From positions 1,584 to 65,583 of the forward strand of contig MGIW01000006.1 in the NCBI GenBank assembly GCA_001793945.1: a DNA stretch of 64,000 nt. Reading direction: 5' to 3'. A program made the translations under genes and the position numbers. Positions 1 to 58,101 of this stretch are shown piece by piece (the first letter of the stretch is position 1; each line of letters starts with the position of its first letter). Source of the stretch: Candidatus Wolfebacteria bacterium RIFOXYD12_FULL_48_21. Its GTDB lineage: Bacteria; Patescibacteriota; Minisyncoccia; UBA6257; UBA9933. Under the pieces are notes generated by a model. The model was not told the DNA's origin, did no database searches, and saw only the letters and a list, made by a program, of their open reading frames with translations.

Positions 1-30
1 GATGTGAGGTAAGGAAAAGAGAGGTGCGGG
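1..30. repeat. GA-rich low-complexity repeat unit ending in GAGGTGCGGG; near-identical 30-bp copy at 211-240
   Basis: direct reading: gatgtgaggtaaggaaaagagaggtgcggg vs gatgtgagataaggaaaagagaggtgcggg. Confidence 0.8.
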
Positions 31-31
31 G

Positions 32-190
32 ATGACAAAAACGCGTTGTCATCCCGAGTGCAGTGAAGCGAAGCGGAGCGAAATCGACCGCGTGCCGCCA
101 TAGCTTTAGCGGTGGAGCAGGGATCTGCATATTACAGACTCCTTCCGCCAGCCGGCGGACAGGCTTAAGCTCGGAATGACAATACGGGGG
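32..190. repeat. Palindromic GTCATTCC...GGAATGAC modular element (module A gtcatcccgagtgcaNcgaagcgRagcggag; module B cagattccttccgccagccggcggacaggcttaNNctcggaatgacaat)
   Basis: inverted termini gtcatcc/ggaatgac, internal palindrome ccgccagccggcgg; same modules recur at >15 loci in window. Confidence 0.8.
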
Positions 191-240
191 ATGAGAGATA
201 TGAGATATGAGATGTGAGATAAGGAAAAGAGAGGTGCGGG
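191..240. repeat. GA-rich repeat (gatgagagatatgagatatgagatgtgagataaggaaaagagaggtgcggg)
   Basis: direct reading; second copy of 30-bp unit flanking the palindromic element. Confidence 0.8.
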
Positions 241-324
241 TGTTTGACTTTATTTGTAAAAGTTGGTATGGAATAGGCAGGACATAACAATGTAGTTTAT
301 GGTAATACCTACGCAGAGGAGGAA

Positions 325-2028
325 GTGAACATGAAGTTAAGCGATTATGTGATGTGGTTCATCAAGGAGCAGGTTGCGGATACGGTATTCCTGATGTCGG
401 GTGGTGGCATTATGCATTTGGTCGATTCCCTTGGGAAGTCCGACCTGAAGGCAGTTTGCTGTCACCACGAACAGGCTGCGGCGATTGCCGCGGAAGGGTA
501 TGCCCGCATGAAGAATGTTCCGGGTGTCGTGTTGGTAACGACCGGCCCCGGCGGCACGAACGCTTTGACCGGTATTGCCGGCGCATGGCTCGACAGCATC
601 CCTATGCTGGTCATTGCCGGGCAGGTAAAGCGGGCCGACATTACGCCGCGGGAAGATGGCGTGCCTGTGGTGCGGCAAACAGGGTTTCAGGAGTTGAATG
701 TCATCGACATGATGAAACCGATCACCAAATATGCAGTGACGGTTGATAGACCGCAAAGTATCCGGCGTGTCTTGCAAAAGGCGGTCTACCTTGCGACGCA
801 TGGCAGACCCGGGCCGGTGTTTGTGGAAATCCCGCTCGATGCACAGGCTACGGAATTAGATCTTGCCGATTTGGAGGAGTGTGGAAGCTGGTATCCTGCA
901 ATGGATCTTCTGCCGGAGCAATCGGATGCCGTTTTGTGTTTTGCGTATAAAGTTGGACAGCTGTTGCGGAGCGCAAAGCGCCCGCTGTTGATGGCCGGCA
1001 ATGGCATCAGACTTGCGGGTGGTGTGGATGCGCTGAATCGGTTTTTGGAAAAGACATGGGTCAATACGGTTACTCCGATGTTTACCGCGGACGACTTGGT
1101 TACCCGCGATTATCCGTATTATCTTGGACGGCAAGGCATGTCGGGTAACAGGGCGGCGAACTATGCCGTGGATAACTGCGATGTGCTGCTGGTCATCGGC
1201 GAGCGGTTGCAGTTGACCCAAACATCGTACGACCACAAAAACTTCGCCACGCAGGCGACGAAGATCATGGTGGACATTGACTTGGGGGAGTTGCAGAAAA
1301 ACACCCTTTCGATCGATATGCCCATCTGGTGCGATGCAAAAACATTTCTTGAGGCGCTGTGCGCGGAGGATATTGATGTGCTGGCCCCATGGAGTGTACC
1401 TATCGAACGGATCGACCCTGCCGCGCATGAGTGCGCCAAAGGCTACCTCAATGTGTATCGGTTTTTGGAGCGGCTCAATACCTATCCGGACCCGATGCCC
1501 ATTGTAACCGCGAATGGCATGGCGAGTGTTGCTTCGCATCAGGCGCTGACTCTCAAGAACGGACAACGGTTTCTTACCAATGCCGGGCTTGGCCACATGG
1601 GTTCCGGATTGCCGATGGCGATTGGGGCTTGCATTGCAAACGGCTATAAGCCGGTGATCTGCATGGAGGGCGACGGATCCATTATGCTGAACCTGCAGGA
1701 ACTGCAGACGATCGAGCATCACAAACTGCCGATCAAGATCTTCATCTTCAACAACAACGGGTATTATTCCATTCGCAATACGCACCAGAATTATTTCAAC
1801 AATGTGTTCGCGGCCGATTCTACTTCGGGGGTTAGTTTTCCGAGTTTCTACCGGATCGCCCCCGCGTTCGGGTTGCCTATCGTGCGCATTTGCAACGACG
1901 ACGAACTCGACGTGGGACTTGATCAGGTCATGCGACATGGCGGACCTATCGTGTGCGAGTTGGCGCTCGACCCGGCCCAGCCGATGCTGGAGCGGTGGTC
2001 GGCTGGCATGTTGCGCGAAGCGCTGTAG
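325..2028 (+). CDS. ThDP-dependent enzyme, acetolactate-synthase-large-subunit-like (candidate YerE-like two-carbon branch transferase acting on an NDP-4-keto-sugar)
   Basis: 567 aa; N-terminal Pyr domain, central domain, C-terminal ThDP-binding GDGS...NN motif (ICMEGDGSIMLNLQELQT...FIFNNNGY); adjacent to E1 dehydrase gene. Confidence 0.8.
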   Translation: MNMKLSDYVMWFIKEQVADTVFLMSGGGIMHLVDSLGKSDLKAVCCHHEQAAAIAAEGYARMKNVPGVVLVTTGPGGTNALTGIAGAWLDSIPMLVIAGQVKRADITPREDGVPVVRQTGFQELNVIDMMKPITKYAVTVDRPQSIRRVLQKAVYLATHGRPGPVFVEIPLDAQATELDLADLEECGSWYPAMDLLPEQSDAVLCFAYKVGQLLRSAKRPLLMAGNGIRLAGGVDALNRFLEKTWVNTVTPMFTADDLVTRDYPYYLGRQGMSGNRAANYAVDNCDVLLVIGERLQLTQTSYDHKNFATQATKIMVDIDLGELQKNTLSIDMPIWCDAKTFLEALCAEDIDVLAPWSVPIERIDPAAHECAKGYLNVYRFLERLNTYPDPMPIVTANGMASVASHQALTLKNGQRFLTNAGLGHMGSGLPMAIGACIANGYKPVICMEGDGSIMLNLQELQTIEHHKLPIKIFIFNNNGYYSIRNTHQNYFNNVFAADSTSGVSFPSFYRIAPAFGLPIVRICNDDELDVGLDQVMRHGGPIVCELALDPAQPMLERWSAGMLREAL

Positions 2029-2052
2029 ACTACGGCGCGTGAGTTTTACCAA

Positions 2053-2080: not shown

Positions 2081-2102
2081 TAGAATGTTAATTACTATAC
2101 TG

Positions 2103-2448: not shown

Positions 2449-2471
2449 GCGGGAGTGATAAGATTATTATT

Positions 2472-2945
2472 ATGCTTACTAAAAAAGAGATCGATCAGCT
2501 TGCCGTGCTTTTAAAAAAAATAGACAACCCGCGTGGCGGATTGCCGCAGCCTGTGTTTGATGCGCTCTGTGGCGTTGTGCCGTTCGTTGCGTGTGAGCTT
2601 GCCATTATGAACAAAAAAGGGGAGCTGTTGCTTGCATGGCGGGAGGACCAATGGTGGAAGGGCTGGCATTTCCCCGGAGGGCTGATGCGCCACCGGGAAA
2701 CATTTGATGAGCGCATCAAAGCGACGGCATTGCGGGAGGTTGGTATTGATGTGAAAAAACATTCGTTTCTTTTTCCTATCAATTATTCCGAAGGAAGACG
2801 CGGACCAACGGTGTCACTTGTATTTTTGTGCCATGCAGAAACATCCACGGAGGGCAAGTTTTTTAAGACCATGCCAAAGGATATCATTCCCGAGCATCGG
2901 GAAATGTGGAGGGGGATTCGCAAGGCGATTAGGGATGAGGTGTGA
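2472..2945 (+). CDS. NUDIX-family hydrolase (start moved to internal Met; the ORF-track N-terminus 2289-2471 reads through repeat DNA)
   Basis: Nudix-box-like GGLMRHRETFDERIKATALREVGI; the N-terminal 61 aa of ORF 2289.. are translations of palindromic repeats. Confidence 0.5.
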   Translation: MLTKKEIDQLAVLLKKIDNPRGGLPQPVFDALCGVVPFVACELAIMNKKGELLLAWREDQWWKGWHFPGGLMRHRETFDERIKATALREVGIDVKKHSFLFPINYSEGRRGPTVSLVFLCHAETSTEGKFFKTMPKDIIPEHREMWRGIRKAIRDEV

Positions 2946-3010
2946 GGTGAGAGGTGAGAGGGGGGAGGTGTGAGATGAGAGGTGTGAGATGAGAGATGTG
3001 AGGAGAGAAG
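2938..3010. repeat. GA-rich repeat (gtgagaggtgagagg...gagatgagagatgtgagg)
   Basis: direct reading. Confidence 0.7.
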
Positions 3011-3027: not shown

Positions 3028-3412
3028 GTGTCATCCCCGTCCGCCAGCTGGCGGAGGGATCCAGGGTGCACATGCGAAATACTGGATTCCCGTTTTCACG
3101 GGAATGACAATGCGGGAGGGATAGGGGAAATAACCGATGACTGATAACCGATGACTGATGACGGGGTGCGAGGAGTGTGTCATCCCGAGTGCAACGAAGC
3201 GGAGCGGAGTGAAGTCGAGGGATCTGTAGTTATTGGTGGTGGCAGATTCCTCGACTGTGCGGGGTACCGCGGAGTTTACCCTGAGCTTGTCGAACGGGCT
3301 CGGAATGACAATGCAAAATGCTGGATCTCGGCTTTCCTGCCCGCAGTTGCTACAGCGTTGCAGACGGGTGCAGGAATGACAGAAAGAGGGACAGGAATGA
3401 CAATACAACTCG
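3028..3412. repeat. Cluster of palindromic GTCATTCC elements interleaved with (ATAACCGATGAC)n unit at 3128-3172
   Basis: gtgtcatccccgtccgccagctggcgga; attcccgttttcacgggaatgacaat; gtcatcccgagtgcaacgaagcggagcggag; ctgcccgcagttgctacagcgttgcagacgggtgcaggaatgac (45-bp module repeated at 33320-33375). Confidence 0.8.
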
Positions 3413-7363: not shown

Positions 7364-7720
7364 ATGAATGAGAATGCATATAATCTTGAGCAGCGAACGC
7401 GAGAGTTTTCTGTTCAGGTAATACGATTTCTTAAAACATTACAACAGGATACTATAAGCAGGCCGATTATTGGTCAACTAATACGGTCTGCTACCAGTGT
7501 CGGTGCAAATTATTGTGAGGCAAATGGGGCAAGCTCAAAAAAAGATTTTTGCAATAAAATATTTATTTGCAAAAAAGAGGCCAAAGAAACACATTATTGG
7601 CTTGATCTTATCGAAGAATGTTGCGGATATAAGAAGGAGCTTAATCATTTAAGAAATGAATGTGTCGAGCTGATTAGAATATTTTCTAAAATAGCCGCAA
7701 GTAGCAAAGAGGAGAGGTAA
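7364..7720 (+). CDS. four-helix-bundle protein (23S rRNA intervening-sequence protein family, TIGR02436-like)
   Basis: 118 aa; signature SATSVGANYCEANGASSKKDF...KEAKETHYWL; two paralogs at 22429 and 63131. Confidence 0.8.
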   Translation: MNENAYNLEQRTREFSVQVIRFLKTLQQDTISRPIIGQLIRSATSVGANYCEANGASSKKDFCNKIFICKKEAKETHYWLDLIEECCGYKKELNHLRNECVELIRIFSKIAASSKEER

Positions 7721-7775
7721 TTTGAAATTTAGAATTTTTAATTTATATTTTCAAATTTCGAATTTCAAATTGTAA
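7717..7775. repeat. AT-rich boundary element (ggTAAtttgaaatttagaatttttaatttatattttcaaatttcgaatttcaaattg); supplies stop codon of 7364..7720
   Basis: direct repeat of element at 7331. Confidence 0.75.
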
Positions 7776-15070: not shown

Positions 15071-15808
15071 ATGCTTAAAGCGATCGTCAAAAAAACAAAA
15101 AAAATTGCATTGCTTCCGCTTATTATTGGGGATTATTTTGCATTCAAAAAAGCAGCCGGCCGTAACGGGCGCTTTACCGTAAATCTTGGCGATGCTTATC
15201 CGTGTCCTTTTGACAAGACCATGTTGACCGGGTTTGATCGGCATTATGTGTATCATACCGCTTGGGCGGCGCGGAAGGTTGCGTACATAAAGCCGGAGGT
15301 CCATACGGATATATCTTCGAGTCTGTATTTTTCTTCCATCGTTTCGGCTTTTGTGCCGGTAACATTTTATGATTATCGGCCGGCCGATCTTCAGTTGAGC
15401 GGCTTGCTTAGTGAAAAGGCAGATCTGCTTGCATTGCCGTTTGCAGACAATAGTGTTGCGTCGCTTTCATGCATGCATACCGTGGAGCATGTGGGGCTGG
15501 GGCGCTATGGCGACCCTATCGACCTAGATGGCGACCTGAAGGCAATCAAGGAGTTGCAGCGGGTGCTTGCGCCGGGCGGATCGCTGTTGTTCGTAGTACC
15601 GATAGGCAAGGCAAAGATCCAATTTAATGCGCATCGCATCTATTCCTACGCCATGATCATGGAATATTTTAATGATCTTGAGTTGAGGGAGTTTTCGCTT
15701 ATTCCCGAAACAAGCGGCTCCATGATCGTCAATGCAACAAGAGAGCAGGCGGACGAGGAGGCATATGGATGTGGATGCTTTTGGTTTGTGAAGAAAGGGA
15801 ATGGGTAA
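15071..15808 (+). CDS. putative SAM-dependent methyltransferase (Methyltransf_11/DUF268-like); stop codon lies inside AT-rich boundary element
   Basis: LQRVLAPGGSLLFVVPIG motif II-like; weak overall. Confidence 0.4.
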   Translation: MLKAIVKKTKKIALLPLIIGDYFAFKKAAGRNGRFTVNLGDAYPCPFDKTMLTGFDRHYVYHTAWAARKVAYIKPEVHTDISSSLYFSSIVSAFVPVTFYDYRPADLQLSGLLSEKADLLALPFADNSVASLSCMHTVEHVGLGRYGDPIDLDGDLKAIKELQRVLAPGGSLLFVVPIGKAKIQFNAHRIYSYAMIMEYFNDLELREFSLIPETSGSMIVNATREQADEEAYGCGCFWFVKKGNG

Positions 15809-15852
15809 TTTGAAATTTAGAATTTTAAATTTTAAATTTATAATTTTATATA
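15803..15852. repeat. AT-rich boundary element (gggtaatttgaaatttagaattttaaattttaaatttataattttatat)
   Basis: same family as 7331/7717. Confidence 0.75.
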
Positions 15853-16718
15853 TGATCATCATCAAATTAAAAGGAGGGTTGGGGAATCAGATGTTCCAGT
15901 ATGCGTGCGCGAAGCATTTGGCCGAGCGTAATGGTGATGTATTGAAATTGGACATCAGCCTTTACCAACCGGGCAATGCTCCCGCGGGCGATACCGCGCG
16001 TTCGTATGCCTTGGGCGCGTTTTCCATTTCCGCACAGGTGGCGAGCAAAGAAGAGGTCCGGCGGGTCAGGGGGCTACTGTGGCACATTATGGCATTAGCC
16101 ATGAAGGTCATTAACAGGGTGCGGCCGATATCCAGTTACATGTTTGACCCGCAGGTATTAGAACGCAGAGGCAATGTGTATCTGGATGGATATTTTCAAA
16201 GCGAGCGATATTTTAAGGATATAAAAGCTTGCATCAGAAATGAATTCCGATTGCGTGAACCTATGGGTGAGCAGGCGCAGGCCATGTTGCGCGACATCGA
16301 CGGATCGGATTCCGTTTCCCTGCATATACGGCGAGGCGATTATGTGACAAATAAAAACGCCAATGCGTTTCATGGGACCTGCCCGCCCGAATATTATCAT
16401 GCGGCTATCAAGGAAATAGGTAAGCATGTACATTCGCCGAAGTTCTTCATATTTTCTGATGACATCGAATGGGCAAAAGCGGATGTCGGCATGCCGGCTC
16501 ATGCTACCTATGTGTCCCGCGATGGCATAGCAGATTATGAGGAGCTTTTATTGATGAGCAAGTGCAAGCACAACATCATCGCGAACAGCAGTTTTAGCTG
16601 GTGGGGTGCGTGGCTCAATGCAAACTCGAACAAGATCGTTGTTGCGCCGAAGCGGTGGATAAACGACGAGCGTGTCGATACGAGTGATGCGGTGCCTGTG
16701 GAATGGGTTAGTATGTGA
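15852..16718 (+). CDS. alpha-1,2-fucosyltransferase (GT11); start moved from 15801 (which reads through the AT-rich repeat) to Met 15852
   Basis: IIKLKGGLGNQMFQYACAKHLA = canonical GT11 N-terminal motif (FutC-like). Confidence 0.75.
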   Translation: MIIIKLKGGLGNQMFQYACAKHLAERNGDVLKLDISLYQPGNAPAGDTARSYALGAFSISAQVASKEEVRRVRGLLWHIMALAMKVINRVRPISSYMFDPQVLERRGNVYLDGYFQSERYFKDIKACIRNEFRLREPMGEQAQAMLRDIDGSDSVSLHIRRGDYVTNKNANAFHGTCPPEYYHAAIKEIGKHVHSPKFFIFSDDIEWAKADVGMPAHATYVSRDGIADYEELLLMSKCKHNIIANSSFSWWGAWLNANSNKIVVAPKRWINDERVDTSDAVPVEWVSM

Positions 16719-18565: not shown

Positions 18566-18690
18566 GATGTGAGGTTGGAGATGTGAGATTAGAGGTGTGA
18601 GGTTGGAGATGGGAGGTATGAGATGCGAGATGAGAGATGAGAGGTGAGAGATGCGAGGTTAGGGGGTGGAGATATGAGACGGGGGGCGGA
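18566..18690. repeat. GA-rich repeat tract (gtgaggttggagatgtgagattagaggtgtgagg...gagatgcgaggttaggggg)
   Basis: direct reading, lies between two minus-strand genes. Confidence 0.7.
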
Positions 18691-20149: not shown

Positions 20150-20235
20150 AGGGATAGGAGGTGAGAGGGGAAGGGTGCGAGTAGAAAGTATAGGGTAGTA
20201 GGTATACGGTATAGGAGTGAAAGGGTGCGGGTAGA
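20150..20235. repeat. GA-rich repeat tract
   Basis: gggatagggataggaggtgagaggggaagggtgcgagtagaaagtatagggtagtaggtatacggtataggagtgaaagggtgcggg. Confidence 0.7.
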
Positions 20236-20239: not shown

Positions 20240-20280
20240 ATATGGGGGCTCGCCGGCTGGCGGACGGGAATGACACACAG
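20240..20280. repeat. palindromic element fragment (ccggctggcggacgggaatgacac)
   Basis: shares ccgccRgctggcgga + ggaatgaca modules. Confidence 0.6.
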
Positions 20281-21354: not shown

Positions 21355-21425
21355 ATAGACGGGTTTAGGACCGGAATGACCCCGTAAAGTCCGCCGGCGG
21401 GCGGACCACGGGGGCAAGCAATGCG
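21355..21425. repeat. palindromic element variant (ggaccggaatgacc...gtccgccggcgggcggac...gcaatgcgggg)
   Basis: direct reading. Confidence 0.55.
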
Positions 21426-22367: not shown

Positions 22368-22399
22368 GTGAGATTGGAGGTTAGAGGTATGAGGTGTGG
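22368..22399. repeat. GA-rich repeat, left inverted repeat flanking four-helix-bundle gene
   Basis: gtgagattggaggttagaggtatgaggtgtgg; reverse complement recurs at 22811-22855. Confidence 0.65.
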
Positions 22400-22428
22400 A
22401 ATGATAAAATGAAACGAATATATTTATT

Positions 22429-22809
22429 ATGAACGGAGAATCCTTAAAGATTAGATCGTTTACTGATTTACATGCGTGGCAAGAAGCGCATGCATTAGTG
22501 GTGGCTATTTATACGCTGACAAAGTTGTTTCCCAAGGAAGAGCTTTTTGGATTAACCTCTCAAGTTCGTCGTGCCGCCATATCGGTTCCTTCTAATATTG
22601 CCGAGGGGTTTAGTAGGGGTTCATATAAAGAACGCCATCAATTCTATTCAATAGCAAGGGGATCTCTTACCGAAGTGCAGAGCCAGCTACTTATTGCGCG
22701 AGATGTACATTATATTAATAGGGACATGTGTGAAAAGCTATTTTTGCAAACAGAGACAGTTAGTCGGATAATAAATGGACTTATGAAAAGCACTAAAGCA
22801 TTATGTTGA
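22429..22809 (+). CDS. four-helix-bundle protein (23S rRNA IVS protein family)
   Basis: 126 aa, LTSQVRRAAISVPSNIAEGFSRGSYKERHQFYSIARGSLTEVQSQL. Confidence 0.8.
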   Translation: MNGESLKIRSFTDLHAWQEAHALVVAIYTLTKLFPKEELFGLTSQVRRAAISVPSNIAEGFSRGSYKERHQFYSIARGSLTEVQSQLLIARDVHYINRDMCEKLFLQTETVSRIINGLMKSTKALC

Positions 22810-22810
22810 T

Positions 22811-22855
22811 TATCTTATCTCTCACCTCTGACCTCATACCTCTCATCTCACACCC
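22811..22855. repeat. TC-rich repeat, right inverted repeat partner (tatcttatctctcacctctgacctcatacctctcatctcacaccc)
   Basis: shares cctcatacctct and atctcac with reverse complement of 22368-22399. Confidence 0.65.
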
Positions 22856-25096: not shown

Positions 25097-25270
25097 ATGA
25101 ACTATTTTAGTTGGGCAAAACTTATTCTTGGTCTTTGGGTGTTCGTTTCTCCATGGGTGCTCGGGTTTGCCGGATATCCACTCGCATTGTGGAGCAACAT
25201 TCTGAGCGGCGCGGGCATTGTTGTTCTTGTGCTTTGGACCTTGTTTGGGAAGAGGGATGCTAACAGATAA
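25097..25270 (+). CDS. SPW-repeat small membrane protein
   Basis: MNYFSWAKLILGLWVFVSPWVLGF; start moved to internal Met. Confidence 0.4.
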   Translation: MNYFSWAKLILGLWVFVSPWVLGFAGYPLALWSNILSGAGIVVLVLWTLFGKRDANR

Positions 25271-25420
25271 CAGATAACCAATAACCGATAACGAGATGCG
25301 AGGGAATAACCAATAACCAATAACAGATAACCAATAACCAATAACGGGATGCGGGAAATAACCTATGACAGATAACTAATAACCGATAACGAGATGCGAG
25401 GGGAAAACATAAAATTATTT
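25262..25420. repeat. (ATAACCRATRAC)n low-complexity repeat, three units each ending in G(A/G)GATGCG(A/G)GG
   Basis: taacagataacagataaccaataaccgataacgagatgcgaggg...ataaccaataacgggatgcggg...ataaccgataacgagatgcgagggg. Confidence 0.8.
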
Positions 25421-25684: not shown

Positions 25685-25748
25685 TGGCAGAATGTATACG
25701 GTATACGGTATACTGTATACATACTACGCTTCTCTTATCTCTAACTAT

Positions 25749-30086: not shown

Positions 30087-30390
30087 ACTGTCATTCCCGT
30101 GAAAACGGGAATCCAGTTTTCTGTACTTTTTTCTAAGAAAAAAGTACCCGTCGGATTCGTGTAAGAATAATCGAATCCGACAGCCCGGCCCGCTGCACAC
30201 TCTCCGCCGGCCCTGCCTACCGGCAGGCAGGTGGCGGATCGTTAGCAACGCCAAGGGTAAAAAGTCGCGAGCGAATAAAAAATGCCGGAGTACCCTATGC
30301 TGTCATCCCGGGCTTGACCCGGGATCTCGATGATTATTGACGAGATTCTGGCTTCCGCTAGTCTGCGGACAGGCGTGGGCCGGAATGACA
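30087..30390. repeat. Cluster of palindromic elements between rpsB and tsf (gtcattcccgtgaaaacgggaatccag; ccgccggccctgcctaccggcaggcaggtggcgga; gtcatcccgggcttgacccgggat; ...ggccggaatgacat) plus two perfect hairpins 30124-30182
   Basis: direct reading. Confidence 0.8.
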
Positions 30391-30471: not shown

Positions 30472-30915
30472 ATGGCAATGGAAGATGTAGCAAAATTGCG
30501 GGAATTGACCGGAGCGGGTGTTGTGGAGTGCAAAAAGGCACTCGATGAGGCAGCGGGGGATTTCGACCGTGCAAAAGACATCATTTTTGAGCGCGGCATC
30601 GCCCGAGCCGAGAAAAAGAGCGATCGTGCGACTGGCGCAGGGCTGTTGGAGACCTATATTCACAATGGCCGCGTGTCCGTTATGCTTGAACTGCGTTGCG
30701 AGACCGATTTTGTGGCGCGCAATGAAAAGTTTCAAGCCTTGGCGCACGACATCGCTATGCATATCGCCGCGATGAATCCGGCGACCGTTGAGGAATTGTA
30801 CGCCCAGCAGTATGTAAAGGATCCCTCCATGACTGTTGAGGAGCTGATCAAAAATTTGATTGGAACCATCGGGGAGAATATGAAGGTGGAGAAGTTTGTG
30901 AGATTCGAGATCTGA
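30472..30915 (+). CDS. tsf: elongation factor Ts (short form)
   Basis: 147 aa, VAKLRELTGAGVVECKKALDEA UBA-like N-terminus, conserved TDFVARNE motif. Confidence 0.85.
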   Translation: MAMEDVAKLRELTGAGVVECKKALDEAAGDFDRAKDIIFERGIARAEKKSDRATGAGLLETYIHNGRVSVMLELRCETDFVARNEKFQALAHDIAMHIAAMNPATVEELYAQQYVKDPSMTVEELIKNLIGTIGENMKVEKFVRFEI

Positions 30916-30944
30916 GATAAGAGATTAGTGGTGAGAGGTAAGAT

Positions 30945-33061: not shown

Positions 33062-33123
33062 TGTCATTCCCGCGGAGGCGGGAATCCAGTATTATATAGA
33101 TTCCCGCCTCCGCGGGAATGACA
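33062..33123. repeat. palindromic element: gtcattcccgcggaggcgggaatccag...gattcccgcctccgcgggaatgacac (nested inverted copies)
   Basis: direct reading. Confidence 0.8.
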
Positions 33124-33236: not shown

Positions 33237-33270
33237 AAGAAAATAGACCTTTTGAGGTCTATTTTCTTAA
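33237..33270 (+). terminator. rho-independent terminator (aagaaaatagaccttttgaggtctattttctt)
   Basis: hairpin after tRNA-Trp. Confidence 0.55.
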
Positions 33271-33278
33271 TGGCGTTT

Positions 33279-33378
33279 TTGTCATTCCTGCGAAAGCAGG
33301 AATCTACATCGCCGCAGATTCCTGCTTTCCTGCCCGCAGTTGCTACAGCGTTGCAGACGGGCGCAGGAATGAAAGTGC
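33279..33378. repeat. palindromic element (gtcattcctgcgaaagcaggaatc ... ctttcctgcccgcagttgctacagcgttgcagacgggcgcaggaatga)
   Basis: 45-bp module nearly identical to 3330-3380. Confidence 0.8.
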
Positions 33379-33446
33379 GCCTCACTTTTTGCTTACCGTT
33401 GTTAGTTATGGGTTGTTAGTTATAGGTTATTTAGTATACTAAAACC

Positions 33447-35640: not shown

Positions 35641-35742
35641 TTGTCATTCCGAGCGTATCCGCCAGTAGGCGGAGCAGTCGAGGAATCTGCAGCGTTTTTA
35701 CTACAGATCCCTCGGCTCCGTTTCACTACACTCGGGATGACA
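35641..35742. repeat. palindromic element (ttgtcattccgagcgtatccgccagtaggcggagcagtcgaggaatctgcag...ctcgggatgacat)
   Basis: direct reading. Confidence 0.75.
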
Positions 35743-35842: not shown

Positions 35843-37114
35843 ATGCAGCGCATTTATTTGGACAATGCGGCGACCACGCCGCTGGATAGCGAAGTAAAAC
35901 AGGCCATGGAGCCTTATTTTGGCGATACATACGGCAATCCGAACTCGTTGCATTGGTTCGGCCAGCAGGCGCGGGCGGCCGTTGACCGGGCACGCGAAAC
36001 GATCGCCAACGCCATTGGTTCCCGATTTAGAGAGGTCATTTTTACCGGGTCGGCGACCGAAGCGAACAACTTGGCAATACGGGGTGCCATTATGCATGCG
36101 CGTGAGACTTTTAACAAAATTGCCGATGGCCGGCCTATGAAGGTTATTGTTTCGACCATAGAGCATGATTCCATTTTGGCCGCCGTGCGGGACATTGAAA
36201 AAGAAGGTGTGGAGGTGGTGCGCATTCCGGTCGATGGCCGTGGATTTGTGGATGTGCAAAAACTTGAGGCGGCGCTCGACGAACGCACCGTGCTGGTATC
36301 GATCATGTATGCGAACAACGAGATTGGGTCCATACAGCCGATCAAAGAAATCGCGAATATACTTAAAAAGTTTCGCGAACGGGAACATGCGTTGCCCTAT
36401 TATCCGCTATTGCATACCGACGCGGTGCAGGCGTTTCAATTTTTGGATTGCACTGTCGATGAACTGGGTGTCGATTTGATGACGCTTTCGGCACATAAGC
36501 TCTACGGACCGAAAGGCATCGGTGCGTTGTATGCACGCACCATGAATACGGTCATGCACGCAAAGGACAACCGCGTCCACATGATACGCCCTCGCGTATC
36601 GGGAGGCGGGCAGGAGTTTGGCATGCGTTCAGGCACGGAAAATGTGGCCGCCATCGCGGGCTTCGCGAAAGCGGTTGAACTGGCGCAAGTGCATCGCACC
36701 AATGAGGGGGAGCGACTTGTGGGATTGCAAAAACGCTTGTGGATTGGGATTCAGGATGCATGCCCCGAAGCAATCATAAACGGGGTTGAAGTGGATTCCC
36801 GCCTCCGCGGGAATGACAGAGGGGAGGGTGGGAATGACAATACAAAAGAGATGACGCTCCCGAACATTCTTAATGTACATGTGCCCGGTAAAAAGGGAGG
36901 GGATCTGCTCATCGCGCTCGATATGCGCGGCATTGCGGTTTCCAGTGGGTCCGCATGCGCGGCATTTTCCGCAAAGCCGTCCCATGTGCTTATGGCACTT
37001 GGGTTTACCGATGCCCGCGCGGGTGGCAGTCTGCGGTTCAGTTTCGGGCGCCACACGACCCAGGAGGACATCGATGGCGCCGTTGAAGCGCTGCGTGCCG
37101 TTTTGCGGGCCTAA
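35843..37114 (+). CDS. iscS: cysteine desulfurase (IscS/NifS family, class V aminotransferase) carrying an in-frame 48-nt palindromic-repeat insertion
   Basis: MQRIYLDNAATTPLD..., PLP Lys in SAHKLYGPKGIGALY, active-site SSGSACA; insertion DSRLRGNDRGEGGNDN encoded by gattcccgcctccgcgggaatgacagaggggagggtgggaatgacaat. Confidence 0.85.
   Translation: MQRIYLDNAATTPLDSEVKQAMEPYFGDTYGNPNSLHWFGQQARAAVDRARETIANAIGSRFREVIFTGSATEANNLAIRGAIMHARETFNKIADGRPMKVIVSTIEHDSILAAVRDIEKEGVEVVRIPVDGRGFVDVQKLEAALDERTVLVSIMYANNEIGSIQPIKEIANILKKFREREHALPYYPLLHTDAVQAFQFLDCTVDELGVDLMTLSAHKLYGPKGIGALYARTMNTVMHAKDNRVHMIRPRVSGGGQEFGMRSGTENVAAIAGFAKAVELAQVHRTNEGERLVGLQKRLWIGIQDACPEAIINGVEVDSRLRGNDRGEGGNDNTKEMTLPNILNVHVPGKKGGDLLIALDMRGIAVSSGSACAAFSAKPSHVLMALGFTDARAGGSLRFSFGRHTTQEDIDGAVEALRAVLRA
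36794..36841. repeat. palindromic GGAATGACA element embedded in frame in iscS-like CDS
   Basis: sequence identical in style to intergenic copies (cf. 46040-46101, 33062-33123). Confidence 0.8.
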
Positions 37115-41802: not shown

Positions 41803-41892
41803 TTGTCATTCCGAGCGAAGAAGTACTCTTCGTAGTCGAGGAATCTGCTTTATGACTTCAGATTCCTCGACAAGCTCGGAATGACAATACAC
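41803..41892. repeat. palindromic element pair (ttgtcattccgagcgaagaagtactcttcgtagtcgaggaatctg...cagattcctcgacaagctcggaatgacaat)
   Basis: direct reading. Confidence 0.8.
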
Positions 41893-44437: not shown

Positions 44438-44487
44438 GGATTCCTCCGCCGGCCCTGCCTGCCGGCAGGCAGGTGGCGGACGGGAAT
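44438..44487. repeat. palindromic element (ccgccggccctgcctgccggcaggcaggtggcggacgggaatgacaa)
   Basis: near-identical to 30205-30239 module. Confidence 0.75.
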
Positions 44488-44561
44488 GACAAACATATGG
44501 GAATAAAAAACCCCGACTCTTGCGAGTCGGGGTGGTTATCAAAAAAGGGAACGGATGTCGG

Positions 44562-46002: not shown

Positions 46003-46101
46003 CAGATTCCTCGTCCGCCGGCTGGCGGATCGGAATGGCAATGCAACATGCTGGATTCCCGCCTCCGCGGGAATGACAGAGAGATGGATGGGAATGACAC
46101 C
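46003..46101. repeat. palindromic elements (cagattcctcgtccgccggctggcggatcggaatggcaat; gattcccgcctccgcgggaatgacagagagatggatgggaatgacac)
   Basis: direct reading; forms spurious N-terminal extension of ORF 45938.. Confidence 0.8.
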
Positions 46102-47887: not shown

Positions 47888-48075
47888 CCTACAACCGACA
47901 ACTAACGACCTATAACGGGATGCAAAGGTTGTCATTCCGGCCTACGAGCCGGAATCTCATGAAAAAATCATGGGATTATAGATCAAGAAATTTGAAAATT
48001 AATGACATTTAATGTCGTTAAAAATATGCGGGTGCTATTGTCGACGAGATCCCGGGTCAAGCCCGGGATGACAAA
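47887..48075. repeat. (ACAACCGACAACTAACGACCTATAAC)GGGATGC unit followed by palindromic element fragments (ttgtcattccggcctacgagccggaat; gatcccgggtcaagcccgggatgacaa)
   Basis: direct reading. Confidence 0.7.
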
Positions 48076-48794: not shown

Positions 48795-49973
48795 ATGAAA
48801 AACCTTTCCGCATTGTACGACCGGAATCTTTCCGAAGAGATCGTCATCGTTCGCGTCGATCTGAATATTAATAACAAGACCTTGCGTGTAAGCGGGCCTA
48901 ATTTGCGCGTCACCTCCATTATCCCAACGATCAAATTCTTGACCAAGCGTGGCGCAAAGGTCGTGCTGGTCAGCCATCGGGGAAGACCGGCTGGCGTAAC
49001 CAATAACCAACGACCAATAACCGATAACATAAAAGAATTTACATTGAAACCGTTTGCGAAGATCCTTGGTGGATTACTGAAGAAAGATGTTTCGTTTATT
49101 CCGCACGATACGAAAGAATATCGTTTGTTTTCGGATGCGAGCGCCGAGAAGATCAAAAAAGCCTCAAAGGGTTCCGTGTTCCTGCTTGAAAACATGCGTT
49201 TCTTTGCCGGCGAAGAGAAGAACGACCCCGCCGTCGTGCGTCCGCTTGCGGAGCTGGGTACATTTTATGTGAATGACGCATTTGCCGTCAGTCATCGCAA
49301 GAACGCTTCGGTGGTCGCCATCACCAAGCTATTGCCTTCGTGCGCGGGGCTTCTGTTGGAAAAGGAAGTGTTTCATATGGACGAAGCAATCAATAACCAT
49401 AAACATCCGTTTGTGGTCATTTTGGGTGGCGCAAAAATGACCGACAAGATGGGGCTGATCAAGCGCTTTATCGGCAAAGCCGATTACTTTCTCGCGGGGG
49501 GTGGCGTGGCCAATACATTTTTTGCGGCCGACGGCCTGCCGATCGGCGATTCCATTTATGAATCGCACATGATCCCCGTTGCAAAAAAGATCATGAAAAC
49601 GAACAAGGTCATTATGCCTATGGATGTTGCCATTTTCGAACGAAAGATCGTAGACAACGGCCCGGGAACGACCGACGAGTGGGTGGAGATCATCAAAAAC
49701 GCAAAGACGATCATTTGGAATGGGCCGGTAGGCGTTATTGAAAACAAAAAATTTGCCAAGGGTTCCGTTGGCATTGCGCAGGCCATCGCCAAGAGCAAGG
49801 CGTTTTCTGTGGTGGGTGGTGGTGAAACAGCACTTGCCTTTACAGGCGTTCCGCTTAAAAAGAACACATTTCTTTCTACGGGGGGTGGTGCGATGTTGGA
49901 GTACCTTTCTGGCATCAAGCTGCCTGGAATAGAGGCGCTGCGCGAGAAAAAAGGAAAAGGAAAAAAGAAATAA
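48795..49973 (+). CDS. pgk: phosphoglycerate kinase carrying an in-frame (ATAACC)-repeat insertion
   Basis: 392 aa; VRVDLNI, SHRGRP, VFLLENMRFFAGEEKNDP, YVNDAFAVSHR motifs; between GRP and EFTLKPF sits GVTNNQRPITDNIK encoded by aaccaataaccaacgaccaataaccgataac. Confidence 0.9.
   Translation: MKNLSALYDRNLSEEIVIVRVDLNINNKTLRVSGPNLRVTSIIPTIKFLTKRGAKVVLVSHRGRPAGVTNNQRPITDNIKEFTLKPFAKILGGLLKKDVSFIPHDTKEYRLFSDASAEKIKKASKGSVFLLENMRFFAGEEKNDPAVVRPLAELGTFYVNDAFAVSHRKNASVVAITKLLPSCAGLLLEKEVFHMDEAINNHKHPFVVILGGAKMTDKMGLIKRFIGKADYFLAGGGVANTFFAADGLPIGDSIYESHMIPVAKKIMKTNKVIMPMDVAIFERKIVDNGPGTTDEWVEIIKNAKTIIWNGPVGVIENKKFAKGSVGIAQAIAKSKAFSVVGGGETALAFTGVPLKKNTFLSTGGGAMLEYLSGIKLPGIEALREKKGKGKKK
48998..49029. 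repeat. (ATAACCRAYRAC)n repeat embedded in frame in pgk
   Basis: sequence matches intergenic repeat units at 25262-25420. Confidence 0.75.
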
Positions 49974-49978: not shown

Positions 49979-50112
49979 CTTGTCATTCCGAGCGGAGAAG
50001 TACCCTTCGCAGGCGAGGAATCTGCAGTTATGTTACTGCAGATCCTTCGTCCGCCAGCTGGCGGATCAGGATGACGATGTACTGGATTCCGGCCTCCGCC
50101 GGAATGACAAAG
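49979..50112. repeat. palindromic element cluster (cttgtcattccgagcggagaagtacccttcgcaggcgaggaatctgcag...ccgccagctggcggatcaggatgacgat...gattccggcctccgccggaatgacaaa)
   Basis: direct reading; creates spurious TTG-initiated N-terminal extension of ORF 49980.. Confidence 0.8.
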
Positions 50113-51052: not shown

Positions 51053-51580
51053 CCGCTATGTCGGTAGGGAGGCGATTACCTTTTTGCTTCGGCAAAGGGG
51101 AGGAAGGTCCGGACACTCATTTGTCCCACCGATCAGGCCAATGTCTTGCGGCAACGGTTGAAGCAACCGCGCTACCGCTTCGTGTTGTCGTGGGATGTTG
51201 ATCTGATCGGTGGGATATCTAACAAGATAGCGGCTAACAGCCGTCGGGAGCGATCCTCGAGGTGCGAGCAGAGACGCCGCAATTTGAAAAAATTGCGGGC
51301 CCTGTACCGCATGGTACAGGGTAGCTCTTATGGAAACATAGGAGGTGAAACGGCTAAATCCTTATCGGGTGCAAGGTCGTACTCTTGTCCTTCGGACAAG
51401 AACTTATAACCAATGACCTATAACTAATAACGGGAATTCTCGTTATGAGTTAATGGTCATGAGTTTTTGGTTCTTGCCCGGAGGGCAGGGGGGTACCGCA
51501 CGAACTTTGGAGCGATCCAAGGTCCAGATACATTATCGTCGAGACACAGAATCCGGCCTATCACCTGCCGATATAGCGGT
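51053..51580 (+). ncRNA. rnpB: RNase P RNA (bacterial type) containing a ~70-nt (ATAACC)-family repeat insertion at 51397-51470
   Basis: P4 strands GGAGGAAGGTCCGGACACTC and ACAGAATCCGGCCTA; terminal P1 pairing ccgctatgtcggtagggagg / cctatcacctgccgatatagcgg; followed by terminator. Confidence 0.75.
51397..51470. repeat. (ATAACC)-family hairpin element inside rnpB (cttataaccaatgacctataactaataacgggaattctcgttatgagttaatggtcatgag)
   Basis: shares ataaccaatgac / ataactaataac words with intergenic repeats; internal palindromes ataacg..cgttat and tgacc..ggtca. Confidence 0.6.
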
Positions 51581-51668: not shown

Positions 51669-51752
51669 ACTGTCATCCTGAATTTATTTCAGGATCTCTC
51701 AGTGATATCAATCAGATTCTGAATCCGCCGGCTGGCGGATCAGAATGACAAA
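51669..51752. repeat. palindromic element variant (ctgtcatcctgaatttatttcaggatctc...cagattctgaatccgccggctggcggatcagaatgacaaa)
   Basis: direct reading. Confidence 0.75.
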
Positions 51753-53582: not shown

Positions 53583-53776
53583 ATTGAGATAGTATATTTA
53601 ATTCTGTAAGTCGACCCTTCTCATAGGCCTCGAGAGCGCATAAAACAAAAACGTTTTACCTTCATTATCCACATCCGCTACAGCAGTTCAGGATTGGAAG
53701 CAAACTGAGAAAACTTACTGTTCACAGTATAAACCACCTCTCTATAAATAGCAAATGGCGTTGGGGGGGAGGGGGG

Positions 53777-53820
53777 ATAACTGATGACTGATGACTAATG
53801 ACCGATGACGGGATGCGGGG
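53777..53820. repeat. (ATAACTGATGAC)n repeat ending GGGATGCGGGG
   Basis: gataactgatgactgatgactaatgaccgatgacgggatgcgggg; preceded by G-tracts. Confidence 0.75.
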
Positions 53821-56002: not shown

Positions 56003-56114
56003 ATGTTGCTTTATAATCTATATGGGTAAGTATATCATGTTTTTAATTCCTCGCTAACTAATGGGTCTATTGGGTTCGCCAACTATAAAAAACAGCCCAG
56101 TAGGCGGGCTGTTT

Positions 56115-58010
56115 TTAGTTGAAGGTCAGTGCATCAACGATCTCATCGATGTTTGCGGTGGCAACTCCTACCACCTTGTCCGCTCCGCCGTAGTAGATAA
56201 ATAGCTTTTTGCCATTGACGGTGCTTCCGCAGGGGAATACCACATTGGGTATGATTCCGTTCTTTTCGTAATCCGTTTCCGGTGCGAAGATATAGTCGGT
56301 CGTTCGCGCCAGTACGATCATCGGATCGTGCAGATCGAGCAATAGGGCGCCGACTCGATAGATGCCTTCTTCGGAAACGCCATGATAGAGGAGGAGCCAT
56401 CCCTTTGTTGTTTTGATCGGTACCGATGCGATACCGACTTTTCGGCCATCCCACATCCCGCGCCGTGGTCCGATGATTGGCGTGAAGGTGTCTATCTTAT
56501 TAGTATCAAAATCAAGTGATTTGATTGGGTCGAGGCAGATATGCTCATGCGTACGGTGGAACACAAGATAGTTGTCGCCAATCTTTTCCGGGAACAGGCA
56601 GGAATCCTTGTCGTCCACGGTCGCCGGTGTAATGATTGCCGGCCAGGACCAGTTCCAATTCTTTTTTAGAAAATCTGCCGTCGATATGCTTGTTGCCGCA
56701 ACCGCCGGGGAATGGGTGCCATCGTAAGCCGTATAGAACATATACAGCATGTCATCTATCTGGGTAATGCGCGGATCTTCGCACCCTGAGTTTCCCGGAT
56801 GCGTCTTTTTTTCAAACGATTCGCGGGGAACATAGATCGGATGATCAACGCGTTCTGTTATTTTCATGCCATCTTTGCTGCATGCGTATCCCAGTACCGA
56901 TGTATCATCGTCGCCCATGGCGCGATATATGATATGTATCTTGCCTCCGATTTCCACGGCAGTCGGGTTGAATACCGCCTTATTTTCCCACGCATGTTCC
57001 TTGATTGGTTCGAGAATGGGATTCTTTTTATACCGGGTAACCACCGGCTCTTTTTTCATGCTCTTGAGTAGTGCCTCAAGATTCACATCGGCCCGGCAGC
57101 AGGTCGTATCGGTCGCGCCATAATAGATATACAGTTCGTTTCCTTTGATAGTCGCGCCGGATGGGAAGATGACATTTGGGATCTGCCCAAACTCCTCGTA
57201 GGTTTCTTCGGGAATGAGTAATGGACTGTCGGTGCGGGCAATGATCTTTTTGGGATCTTTTAGGTCGAGTAAAAGTGCTTCAATGCCGAAGATCTTGTTG
57301 TCGCTGAAGTAATTCTGAATATGCGAATAGATGACCAGCCAGCCATCTTTCGTCTTAAGCGGCACGGCTCCGATCTCGACTTGATCGCTATCTTTTCTGC
57401 GAACGATCATGCGATGAGATTCTATTTCGTTGTGCCATTTGTCCCAATATGCCGTTGACCATATTTGGTCGATGGTATCGAATTCTGCCAAGGCTATTTT
57501 TACCGGCGGCATATCGGTGTGCGCCGCCAAAAGGGCTACATATTTGCCGTTGATCTTTTCGGGGAACAGCGCCATCGCCTTTGCATTGAAGGGTGTTACC
57601 AAATGCCGTTCGGTGATCGTTTCGAAGTCCTTGGTCATCGCCACGGCGATGCGGATACCTTCCGCACTGAATGGGAATGTGCCGAGCGCGGTATAAAAAA
57701 TATAATAGGTGTCGTCGATCTTCGTGACGCGTGGATCTTCACATCCGTATTTTTCCCACTCATATTTGGGTGTGATCAACGGTTTGCGGGGTTCGTACCA
57801 GTGGCCGTCCTTGCTTACGCCGTATCCGATGGTCGAGAGGCGGAGTTCGTGCCCTTTGATATATTTCATCTCGGACATCGCCCGGTAGACGCAATGGAAT
57901 TTGTTCTTGTCTTGGATCGGGCACCAATTAAAGGCAGCGAATGATTCCCATGGATGGTCTATGGTTGGACTAATGATGGGGTTATAGAGTGAGCGTTTTA
58001 CTACGAACAT
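56115..58010 (-). CDS. GH130-like (DUF377) beta-propeller glycoside phosphorylase/hydrolase-family protein with two tandem propeller domains
   Basis: 631 aa; each half carries GCEDPR(V/I)T..IDD.YY.FYTA motif typical of GH130/GH43-type 5-bladed propellers. Confidence 0.5.
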   Translation of the reverse strand: MFVVKRSLYNPIISPTIDHPWESFAAFNWCPIQDKNKFHCVYRAMSEMKYIKGHELRLSTIGYGVSKDGHWYEPRKPLITPKYEWEKYGCEDPRVTKIDDTYYIFYTALGTFPFSAEGIRIAVAMTKDFETITERHLVTPFNAKAMALFPEKINGKYVALLAAHTDMPPVKIALAEFDTIDQIWSTAYWDKWHNEIESHRMIVRRKDSDQVEIGAVPLKTKDGWLVIYSHIQNYFSDNKIFGIEALLLDLKDPKKIIARTDSPLLIPEETYEEFGQIPNVIFPSGATIKGNELYIYYGATDTTCCRADVNLEALLKSMKKEPVVTRYKKNPILEPIKEHAWENKAVFNPTAVEIGGKIHIIYRAMGDDDTSVLGYACSKDGMKITERVDHPIYVPRESFEKKTHPGNSGCEDPRITQIDDMLYMFYTAYDGTHSPAVAATSISTADFLKKNWNWSWPAIITPATVDDKDSCLFPEKIGDNYLVFHRTHEHICLDPIKSLDFDTNKIDTFTPIIGPRRGMWDGRKVGIASVPIKTTKGWLLLYHGVSEEGIYRVGALLLDLHDPMIVLARTTDYIFAPETDYEKNGIIPNVVFPCGSTVNGKKLFIYYGGADKVVGVATANIDEIVDALTFN

Positions 58011-58012
58011 GA

Positions 58013-58045
58013 GAAAGTAATTTGAAATTTAAAATTCGAAATGAC
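58013..58045. repeat. AT-rich boundary element (gaaagtaatttgaaatttaaaattcgaaatgac) abutting start codon of 56115..58010
   Basis: same family as 7331/7717/15803/60686. Confidence 0.7.
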
Positions 58046-58095
58046 ACACCCTGTCATTTCGATTCGCCAGCTGGCGGACGAGGAATCTGCAGGAT
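58041..58095. repeat. palindromic element fragment (ctgtcatttcgattcgccagctggcggacgaggaatctgcag)
   Basis: direct reading. Confidence 0.7.
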
Positions 58096-58101
58096 GGATG
58101 T

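Follow-up and report, generated by a model that had tools for sequence, protein, structure and literature searches.

TGTC-headed hairpin repeats, probably of the Ssn-related class, in the non-coding DNA of a Candidatus Wolfebacteria genome

The locus and its host

We have analyzed a 64-kb stretch of DNA (64,000 nucleotides, hereafter the window) from the genome of a Candidatus Wolfebacteria bacterium. Its genes include rpsB, parA and parB, the genes for tRNA-Trp and RNase P RNA, a cysteine desulfurase gene, part of a type-IV-pilus-like operon and a small GIY-YIG gene, and the spacers between them are crowded with short palindromic elements. The first-pass annotation, made from the letters alone, had seen in these elements a high-copy family behaving like MITEs (miniature transposable elements with inverted repeats) or repetitive extragenic palindromes (REPs). 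Our analysis indicates that they are REP-class hairpins, mostly arranged as inverted doublets, dispersed, and variable in presence between strains. They probably belong with the dRS3/NTS repeats of Neisseria and with the Ssn-related motifs (SRM) that flank genes for small GIY-YIG nucleases.

The window is 99.99-100% identical to public ENA/NCBI contigs of the same Wolfebacteria population. Its proteins recur with identical sequence in the metagenome-assembled genomes (MAGs) RIFOXYD12_FULL_48_21 and RIFOXYD1_FULL_48_65 (GCA_001793935.1, GCA_001793975.1), both from groundwater of the Rifle aquifer, and the longest contig that carries them has 893 kb. The host is a small-genome member of the Candidate Phyla Radiation (CPR, Patescibacteria), a group whose genomes are usually seen as minimal and streamlined. 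Besides the window we have searched about 8 kb of the adjoining scaffold (4.9 kb upstream and 3.3 kb downstream), and we have compared it with contigs of other strains and with about 45 kb of loci from two other Wolfebacteria (L153, GCA_001793895.1, and L154). Public gene calls served as the map for separating coding from non-coding DNA.

Abundance and distribution of the repeats

The GCATTCC-type motif GTCATTCC occurs 28 times on the two strands of the window, against 2.25 +/- 1.4 expected and a maximum of 7 in 100 dinucleotide shuffles. Since the degenerate pattern published for SRM finds only five units here, we have used a structural definition with shuffle controls: TGTCAT, then at most 80 nt later the first five bases of the stem in reverse complement, then C. 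Under this definition the window holds 29 units, whereas 0.65 +/- 0.73 are expected (200 dinucleotide shuffles, maximum 3); requiring a near-perfect stem in the hairpin search misses the bipartite units. A repeat finder recovers the modules of the first-pass annotation as direct and inverted families (D12, D13, D15-D20 and I1-I24), and all 17 loci that had been listed contain units or recognisable degenerate copies, at the density of about one locus per 3.5 kb that had been given.

These 17 loci sum to 2,280 nt; they take up 3.6% of the window and, of its 8.8 kb of non-coding DNA, about 26%. Genuine units lie outside genes, with the copy inside the cysteine desulfurase gene as the single exception. 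When two units were found less than 200 nt apart, they were arranged tail-to-tail in eight cases, head-to-head in three and head-to-tail in two. The flanks on the same scaffold also carry units (six upstream and two downstream), and the orthologous loci of the two other Wolfebacteria have 11 per 22 kb; with the matches in at least 119 stretches of other genomes described below, the copies are not confined to the window and the family is dispersed, as had been proposed. The window has about 0.45 units per kb, which, extrapolated to a genome of about 0.9 Mb on the assumption that the rest is like the window, would give some 400 units.

The repeats also mislead gene callers into false start codons. 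Open reading frames (ORFs) beginning at 2289, 45938 and 49980 start within elements, in agreement with the first-pass annotation, which had called them false N-terminal extensions, and the public gene calls set starts at 2331, 45995 and 49980, inside the elements or at their 5' edge. A spurious ORF encoded by a repeat cluster matched nothing in a protein-database search except itself. At its gathering thresholds Rfam returned only two tRNAs for the window and no RNA family for the hairpin repeats.

Anatomy and folding of the hairpin units

The head of the unit is an unpaired TGTC in 28 of the 29 cases and CGTC in the other one. The stem starts with an A-T pair followed by T-A, Y-R and C-G; ATC-Y follows the stem in all 29 units, with a tail of C, Y (29/29) and then mostly R. 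This C-Y-R tail, found in nearly all units, reads CCAG in eight of them and CTGC in nine. The GTC directly 5' of the palindrome and the C directly 3' of it are present in 29/29, but both are imposed by the unit search; the T at position -1 (28/29) and the Y at position +1 (29/29) are not.

In the short units a perfect stem of 8 bp encloses a loop of 4-6 nt, as in TGTC-ATTCCCGC-GGAG-GCGGGAAT-CCAG. The stem is known in the variants ATTCCCGC, ATTCCCGT, ATCCCGGG, ATTCCGGC, ATTCCTGC, ATCCCGTG, ATCCTGAA, ATCCCCGC and ATACCGGC, and when 14 distinct short units from the window and from related Wolfebacteria were aligned, its eight base pairs were paired in 100% of the cells. Five of the eight pairs showed compensatory changes, and pairs 1 and 2 were invariant (AU and UA). 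In control registers slid by 1-3 columns pairing was at most 53%, and the three innermost pairs of the stem are not imposed by the search. As single-stranded DNA (ssDNA) the short units fold with -8.9 to -9.3 kcal/mol (z about -4 to -4.6).

The long, class-2 units (TGTCATYCCGAG...CGAGGRATCTGC) have only a closing stem of 5 bp and fold weakly when alone (z = +0.55 and -1.7). Nearly always they stand tail-to-tail with an inverted partner (GCAGATTCC...CTCGGAATGACAAT) over a spacer of 10-20 nt, and such doublets fold into one long hairpin with -21 to -34 kcal/mol (z = -3.5 to -11.9), two of them reaching -30.8 (z = -9.6) and -34.2 kcal/mol (z = -11.9). Folding, which the first-pass annotation had offered as a check, gives hairpins with negative z for short units and doublets. 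Its statement that every element ends in inverted termini is true of the doublets, which have both; single units occur as well.

In about half of the units the loop is replaced by a long or nested palindrome, of which TCCGCCAGCTGGCGGA is an example. The small set of modules into which the elements had been divided (cited here by number) resolves in this light into hairpin units, half-doublets and loop-nested palindromes: modules 2, 4 and 5 are units whose loop holds a GC-rich palindrome, TCCGCCRGCYGGCGGA, GGCCCTGCCTRCCGGCAGGCAGG or CTGCCCGCAG...CGGGCG. Where the window has module 5, related Wolfebacteria have a plain hairpin, and the inner palindrome is therefore a nested addition. One could imagine, as a rather doubtful reading, that such nesting marks the hairpin loops as preferred insertion targets of the elements themselves.

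Relationship to known repeat classes

The repeat class was published in 2013 and its likely nuclease partner in 2025, and the conceptual point is not new. New in the present case are the host, a CPR bacterium, how dense the repeats are, how they are nested and combined into mosaics, the copy lying in frame within a gene, and the fact that a canonical ssn gene appears to be absent from the vicinity.

Members of the CGTC-tagged REP superfamily carry CGTC or TGTC as head; their stem of 8-9 bp opens with AT, the loop has 4-5 nt, and the tail, short and unpaired, is CCA-like. They form dimers, have intragenic copies and lack a dedicated transposase, and CGTC-1 has been equated both with dRS3 and with RPE-6 of Rickettsia (Di Nocera et al., BMC Genomics 2013, PMC3733652). 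The short units of the window fit much of this definition. The head agrees in all 29 units (28 TGTC, 1 CGTC), and the stem in the 14 distinct short units (the long ones, with their 5-bp closing stem, pair mainly with the doublet partner). The loop has 4-6 nt in the short units, about half of all units having long or nested palindromes instead, and the tail is C-Y-R in nearly all units. High copy number, a mainly extragenic location and frequent dimers are also found here. As in the dRS3/NIME mosaics and the Rickettsia elements RPE-6 and RPE-4, there are mosaic clusters among other repeats, in-frame genic copies and no transposase gene nearby. The window differs in its host phylum, which is outside the five reported in that study, and in how extensive the loop-nested palindromes are.

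In Neisseria the NTS is a 28-nt oriented hairpin, CGTCATTCCCGCGMAVGCGGGAATCYRG, that includes the dRS3 repeat (Chenal et al., Nat Commun 2025, PMC11893778). According to the same work the small single-domain GIY-YIG protein SsnA binds the NTS and cuts upstream of it, only in ssDNA and only on one strand, and cleavage and binding depend most on the GTC that precedes the palindrome and on the C that follows it. Homologues of ssnA (CDD cd10448), described mainly from Pseudomonadati, are flanked in many phyla by SRM in an arrangement like that of an insertion sequence (IS), SRM-ssn-SRM. Six copies in the window are nearly identical to the NTS, with 2-3 mismatches to its consensus against none expected, and the strict SRM pattern HGTCWYN(0-2)YYVSBRHN(0-5)WNVSBRGN(0-2)RNCYNB has five matches against 0.22 expected. 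The oriented hairpin, the GTC head, the ATTCCC..GGGAAT-type stem, the C-Y-R-G tail and the extragenic, clustered distribution are all shared. In contrast to the Neisseria system, the host is here one of the Wolfebacteria, most units have longer loops, bipartite stems and nested palindromes, and no cd10448-type ssn gene was found in the 64-kb window, whose only GIY-YIG gene is of the UPF0213 type.

A flanked GIY-YIG gene in other genomes

We have scanned other genomes, one per species, with a right-hand-hairpin pattern of 25 specified bases derived from the window, CAGATTCCTCG-N0-30-GCTCGGAATGACAA. It matched in at least 119 stretches belonging to more than a dozen phyla, as read from the record titles: Acidobacteriota, Pseudomonadota, Bacteroidota, Chloroflexota, Actinomycetota, Gemmatimonadota, Armatimonadota, Verrucomicrobiota, Omnitrophota, Melainabacteria, Nitrospirota, Zixibacteria, KSB1, Patescibacteria and others. 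Paired units at these loci were tail-to-tail in 43 cases, head-to-head in six and head-to-tail in six.

At two of the matched loci a small GIY-YIG ORF lies beside the hairpins. In CPR genomes such a gene is flanked by the same hairpin types as those of the window. In a Parcubacteria MAG (L152) a gene for 98 amino acids (aa) sits exactly between TGTCATCCCGAG...CGAGGGATCTG and CAGATTCCTCGACTTCGCTCGGAATGACAAT. The same left and right hairpin types enclose a 94-aa homologue in a MAG of the Roizmanbacteria (L160/L162), and directly beside it L160 has a gene-less copy of the same pair, in which a 48-nt spacer replaces the gene. Because the hairpin pair that flanks an ssn-like gene in these CPR relatives is the one found in the Wolfebacteria, the doublets of the latter are best read as gene-less derivatives.

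The L152 protein has 2,964 relatives in the protein database (E <= 1e-5), and several of the named matches among the best 120 of them are Patescibacteria; no Wolfebacteria appear among those 120. Many of these matches are encoded on very short contigs, as expected of repeat-flanked genes. In L162 the hairpin-ssn-hairpin unit is tandemly duplicated (1039-1785), and the assemblies L160 and L161 have it in single copy; the discrepancy could stem from the assemblies or reflect a true duplication.

The nature of this gene bears on another class of REP doublets. The REPINs (Bertels & Rainey, PLoS Genet 2011, PMC3116915) are also short-spacer inverted doublets of REPs, non-autonomous and dependent on a single-copy gene, itself flanked by repeats, for a REP-associated tyrosine transposase (RAYT), an IS200/IS605-like Y1 enzyme. 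Mobilisation by a RAYT, as in Pseudomonas and Escherichia coli, would account for doublets that fold into one long hairpin and for a high-copy, extragenic family. However, all 29 heads are TGTC or CGTC and not GTAG, the interiors of the hairpins vary far more within this single genome than they do in typical REPIN populations, and the gene between the hairpins in the CPR relatives encodes a GIY-YIG nuclease and not an HUH/Y1 transposase. The called genes of the window and its flanks gave no Pfam match to Y1_Tnp, DDE or IS110 families, and CGTC repeats are reported never to flank tyrosine-transposase genes (PMC3733652). We regard an origin by RAYT as extremely improbable.

Proposed mode of multiplication

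We consider it likely that the elements are TGTC/CGTC-tagged REP hairpins of the class of the Neisseria dRS3/NTS and of the SRM, and that the doublets are gene-less derivatives presumably multiplied by an Ssn-type nuclease. The unit plan of unpaired TGTC head, stem starting A-T/T-A, loop that may nest a palindrome and unpaired C-Y-R tail would be what such an enzyme recognises. By analogy with SsnA, the hairpin extruded on ssDNA would be bound by a small single-domain GIY-YIG endonuclease, which would cut one strand a few nt 5' of the head, and we infer that the same binding and strand-specific cleavage may occur in this organism. The autonomous form would be the one of the other CPR genomes, TGTCATCCCGAG...CGAGGGATCT, ssn, AGATTCCTCGAC...GCTCGGAATGACA, with the heads outward. 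The doublets of the window would be the same pairs minus the gene, non-autonomous and MITE- or REPIN-like, presumably multiplied in trans, with a GIY-YIG ssDNA nuclease as the putative driver; single units and mosaic clusters would be products of decay or recombination. A role for the host, e.g. in modulating incoming ssDNA or recombination, is conceivable on the same analogy.

Several observations weigh against this proposal. Six-frame searches of the window, the adjacent scaffold, the strain variants and the loci of the related Wolfebacteria found no Ssn-type gene. The single GIY-YIG ORF that they found lies on the minus strand at 60440-60685 and encodes 82 aa with a clear GIY-YIG domain (Pfam E = 2e-17); we have compared it with the SRM-flanked proteins and with the UPF0213 entries of the PDB. 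Its product is UPF0213/YhbQ-like (PDB 1zg2, E = 3e-20); it is 29% identical to the SRM-flanked proteins, which are 52% identical to each other across phyla, and lacks the GVTN, GF..KY and C-terminal NP.W.DL motifs that are invariant in them. No TGTCAT hairpin lies on either side of the gene. The units of the window other than the five matches fall outside the strict published SRM pattern; this is due to loops and to long or nested stems that the pattern does not cover. Tail-to-tail dimers dominate here, whereas the dimers of the CGTC families are mostly head-to-head (PMC3733652). Finally, the boundaries of the strain indels described in the next section do not coincide with the hairpin termini, and with no consistent junction signature the mode of insertion is not visible.

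The 60440-60685 product is homologous to the profile of the SRM-flanked proteins (hhalign probability 97.9%). UPF0213 is the closest solved relative of the Ssn-like profile, and the two families are therefore related but distinct; the gene is a weak candidate partner and not an established part of the system. It is the divergent neighbour of a type-IV-pilus-like operon with a T2SSE ATPase, T2SSF and N-methyl pilins (window 60440-63484, L023 1-9926), and a link of this UPF0213-type gene to DNA uptake is speculative. One could imagine that this bacterium, which appears to depend on a type-IV-pilus apparatus for the uptake of DNA, uses the hairpins and its UPF0213/YhbQ-type protein, in place of a canonical Ssn, to mark or cut the incoming ssDNA. 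We think this rather doubtful; if true, UPF0213, a large family without established function, would be a second family of hairpin-directed ssDNA nucleases.

If the Ssn-type assignment is right, about a quarter of the non-coding DNA in these 64 kb of a Wolfebacteria genome would be Ssn-type hairpin repeats. Genomes rich in SRM are enriched among symbionts (PMC11893778). Should the extrapolated density hold genome-wide, this organism would join them, and the class would extend to an episymbiotic radiation dependent on DNA uptake.

Variation between species and strains

Identical units after rpsB (30090, 30302) are conserved in both other Wolfebacteria, which also share the doublet between parA and parB, and some copies are therefore old and stable. 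Other spacers of these two genomes have different units or none.

Turnover was apparent also between near-identical strains. Over 16 kb compared with strain L011 (99.0-99.9% identical), three of the four indels of at least 5 nt are hairpin elements. A 99-nt doublet segment (33269-33367) and a 109-nt CGTC-headed composite (30149-30257) are missing in L011, which carries an extra 139-nt segment containing a doublet at window position 31457. The composite starts with a CGTC hairpin that lacks the AT stem start (CGTC-GGATTCG...CGAATCC-GACAG) and goes on with the module-4 palindrome; its absence from L011 indicates that repeats beyond the TGTCAT units are polymorphic too.

No target-site duplication was found at the three filled/empty sites (30149, 31457 and 33269). 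Comparison of orthologous loci, which the first-pass annotation had suggested as a way to see both presence/absence polymorphism and target-site duplications, has yielded only the former. This bears on the idea of classical MITEs, i.e. internally deleted copies of an IS with a DDE transposase and terminal inverted repeats of 13-14 bp (TTGTCATTCCGAGC...GCTCGGAATGACAA). The doublets, of 60-110 bp with clear terminal inverted repeats and with presence/absence polymorphism, are what one would expect from it, and in small size, high-copy intergenic location and spurious ORF starts they are like the Correia elements and Nezha. However, the polymorphic sites lack the duplications, and the elements are therefore not derivatives of a classical transposon with terminal inverted repeats and target-site duplications. 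Single hairpins are numerous among the copies. Head and tail are fixed and the interior of the stem varies by compensatory changes, as would suit recognition of a structure more than of a terminal-repeat sequence. An IS with these ends was not seen in the window, its flanks or the 119 stretches examined elsewhere, no parental DDE insertion sequence is known, and the GIY-YIG gene is the sole ORF that we have found between the hairpins. This origin is hardly credible, and the MITE- or REP-like behaviour read by the first-pass annotation is supported in the sense of gene-less, MITE- or REPIN-like derivatives.

Repeats also mark recombination breakpoints between strains. In strain L009 a rearrangement breakpoint lies within the right-hand unit 33099-33123, and several public contigs terminate in the repeats, e.g. 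L022 at window position 50110, which indicates that they break assemblies. The breakpoint could suggest attachment or target sites of a site-specific recombinase. For dRS3 there is precedent, since it is a documented phage integration target (PMC11893778), used by the Piv/IS110-type enzyme of a Neisseria filamentous phage, and REPs are known as targets of the IS110 family. However, neither the window nor its flanks contain such a recombinase or a prophage, and being a target leaves the multiplication of the repeats unexplained; as their explanation we find this very improbable. Beside the first hairpin locus strain L003 has a 2.9-kb insertion (L003 1625-4611, at window position ~243-289) that includes a zeta-toxin-like gene and has a 47-nt duplication of window 243-289 at its borders.

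The in-frame copy and the question of host function

One hairpin copy is tolerated in frame in the essential-looking cysteine desulfurase gene (35843-37114). The element, at 36791-36841, encodes ...DSRLRGNDRGEGGNDN... and lengthens the protein by about 14 residues (SRLRGNDRGEGGND) that are missing from solved homologues at this point. The related Wolfebacteria have a different hairpin element there, in frame at the same codon position (L153 9530-9580; L154 8701-8751), suggesting a hot spot or a replacement. The copy recalls the Rickettsia palindromic elements, which have been assigned to the CGTC superfamily (PMC3733652).

The elements might instead be structures selected by the host, such as RNA terminators, mRNA stabilisers or sites for a chromosome-organising protein, kept for their function and not currently mobile. 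Twelve of the 17 loci do lie between co-directional genes (two are convergent, two divergent and one intragenic), several start merely 4-10 nt 3' of a stop codon, different Wolfebacteria species share the copies that follow rpsB and that separate parA from parB, and many REPs have been argued to be transcribed (PMC3733652). However, both orientations occur at comparable frequency, most units have no T-run after them, elements differ between near-identical strains, and the genic copy is in frame with a different element at the same site in relatives. The presence of the same sequences in more than a dozen phyla also fits a spreading element better than independent invention by hosts. We judge host function unlikely as the primary explanation; it may be a secondary, exapted role, e.g. 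for the conserved copies, and as such it is compatible with our proposal of hairpins multiplied by an Ssn-type nuclease. Intrinsic terminators were considered separately and rejected, the units being found in both orientations with a tail of C-Y-R-G/C and not a T-run; this was judged from the sequence, with no dedicated terminator scan. Distinct terminator-like hairpins adjoin some of the units, e.g. at 30126-30150.

Inventory of the loci

The first locus (32-190) is a tail-to-tail doublet with a left unit TGTCATCCCGAG...GGGATCTGC at 47-128 (+) and a right unit CAGACTCC-TCCGCCAGCCGGCGGA-...CTCGGAATGACAAT at 133-182, whose head is on the minus strand. It is followed by a four-feature cluster (2103-2448) made of a single unit (2105-2129, -), a doublet (2172-2280) with module 1 as its left half and module 2 as its right half, a perfect short hairpin (2290-2319, +) that matches the strict SRM pattern, and a long unit (2359-2428, -) with a nested CCGCCAGCTGGCGG palindrome. 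The cluster at 3028-3412 is interleaved with heptamer arrays and has units at 3029-3064 (+), 3082-3109 (-, NTS-like), 3178-3227 (+) and 3243-3312 (-), then module 5 at 3333-3382, a hairpin with a palindrome nested in the loop, and a spare GGAATGACA head at 3394-3403. Two incomplete copies come next: a partial unit at 20240-20280 (-), in which an inner CGCCGGCTGGCGGA palindrome precedes a GGGAATGACA head, and a degenerate copy at 21355-21425 formed by CCGGAATGACC and an inner TCCGCCGGCGGGCGGA palindrome.

Only 4 nt after rpsB begins the cluster 30087-30390, in which an NTS-like unit (30089-30116, +) is followed by the composite absent from L011 and by a unit at 30301-30329 (+) standing tail-to-tail with another at 30341-30390 (-). 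Upstream of the tRNA-Trp gene, 33062-33123 is a perfect tail-to-tail doublet of TGTCATTCCCGCGGAGGCGGGAATCCAG, two mismatches away from the Neisseria NTS. The locus 33279-33378 combines TGTCATTCCTGCGAAAGCAGGAATC with module 5, a partner hairpin with a nested palindrome, in a doublet that is plain in the relatives. Another tail-to-tail doublet (35641-35742) consists of the units 35643-35687 (+) and 35706-35741 (-). The in-frame copy (36791-36841, -) is an NTS-like unit with a second GGGAATGACA head. Between parA and parB (41803-41892) the doublet reads TTGTCATTCCGAGC...CGAGGAATCTGC, a 10-nt spacer and CAGATTCCTCGACAAGCTCGGAATGACAAT.

At 44438-44491 (-) a unit has a long nested palindrome, module 4, between the bases of its closing stem. 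Three heads of the same orientation are found at 46003-46101 (-); they belong to GCAGATTCC-TCCGCCGGCTGGCGGA-TCGGAATGGCA, to an NTS-like unit (46051-46078) and to a spare GGGAATGACA; the start of the public PolX gene call at 45995 is attributed to this locus. The pair at 47929-48075 is tail-to-tail, with units 47931-47956 (+) and 48045-48073 (-), and its spacer as given has 91 nt. A doublet at 49979-50112, formed by units 49982-50022 (+) and 50041-50075 (-, with the sole CGTC head among the 29 units), is followed by a further unit at 50085-50108 (-); the false start at 49980 that this locus creates is a TTG. Downstream of the RNase P RNA gene the doublet 51669-51752 joins, tail-to-tail, a unit with an AT-rich stem (51672-51696, +) and a second one (51715-51749, -). 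The last locus, 58041-58095 (+), is a single degenerate unit, TGTCATTTCGA-TTCGCCAGCTGGCGGA-CGAGGAATCTGCAG.

Heptamer arrays and neighbouring features

Many intergenic spacers also contain tandem arrays with a period of 7, 14 or 21, often adjacent to the hairpin elements. They were found at 195-221, 2936-3008, 3130-3162, 7719-7771, 15799-15855, 18566-18662, 20188-20215, 22819-22854, 25261-25398, 25694-25720, 30899-30925, 33398-33428 and 53776-53809. Four sequence types can be told apart (GAGATGA/GAGGTGT, TAACCGA/TAACCAA, AATTTGA and GTATACG), and the arrays, often bounded by GATGCGGG or GGTGCGGG, resemble the short tandemly repeated repetitive (STRR) heptamers of cyanobacteria. An array of the TAACCAA type (48997-49028) lies within the phosphoglycerate kinase ORF and appears to be inserted in frame; its product, ...GVTNNQRPITDN..., stands between two conserved motifs, GRP and EF(T/S)L.

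A 503-aa ORF (27716-29227) consists of about 6.7 tandem copies of a 153-nt (51-aa) repeat, with no confident Pfam family. The RNase P RNA gene (51060-51576, +; RF00010, 76.3 bits against a gathering threshold of 100, E = 3e-23) has large insertions, one of which (~51395-51475) is a hairpin of TAACCAA-type heptamer repeats. Three genes, at 7364-7720, 22429-22809 and 63131-63484, code for four-helix-bundle proteins of the 23S_rRNA_IVP or bAvd-like kind, and each of them is flanked by heptamer arrays. Around the second one the flanking arrays (22377-22407 and 22817-22854) are inverted, like the stem around a 23S rRNA intervening sequence.

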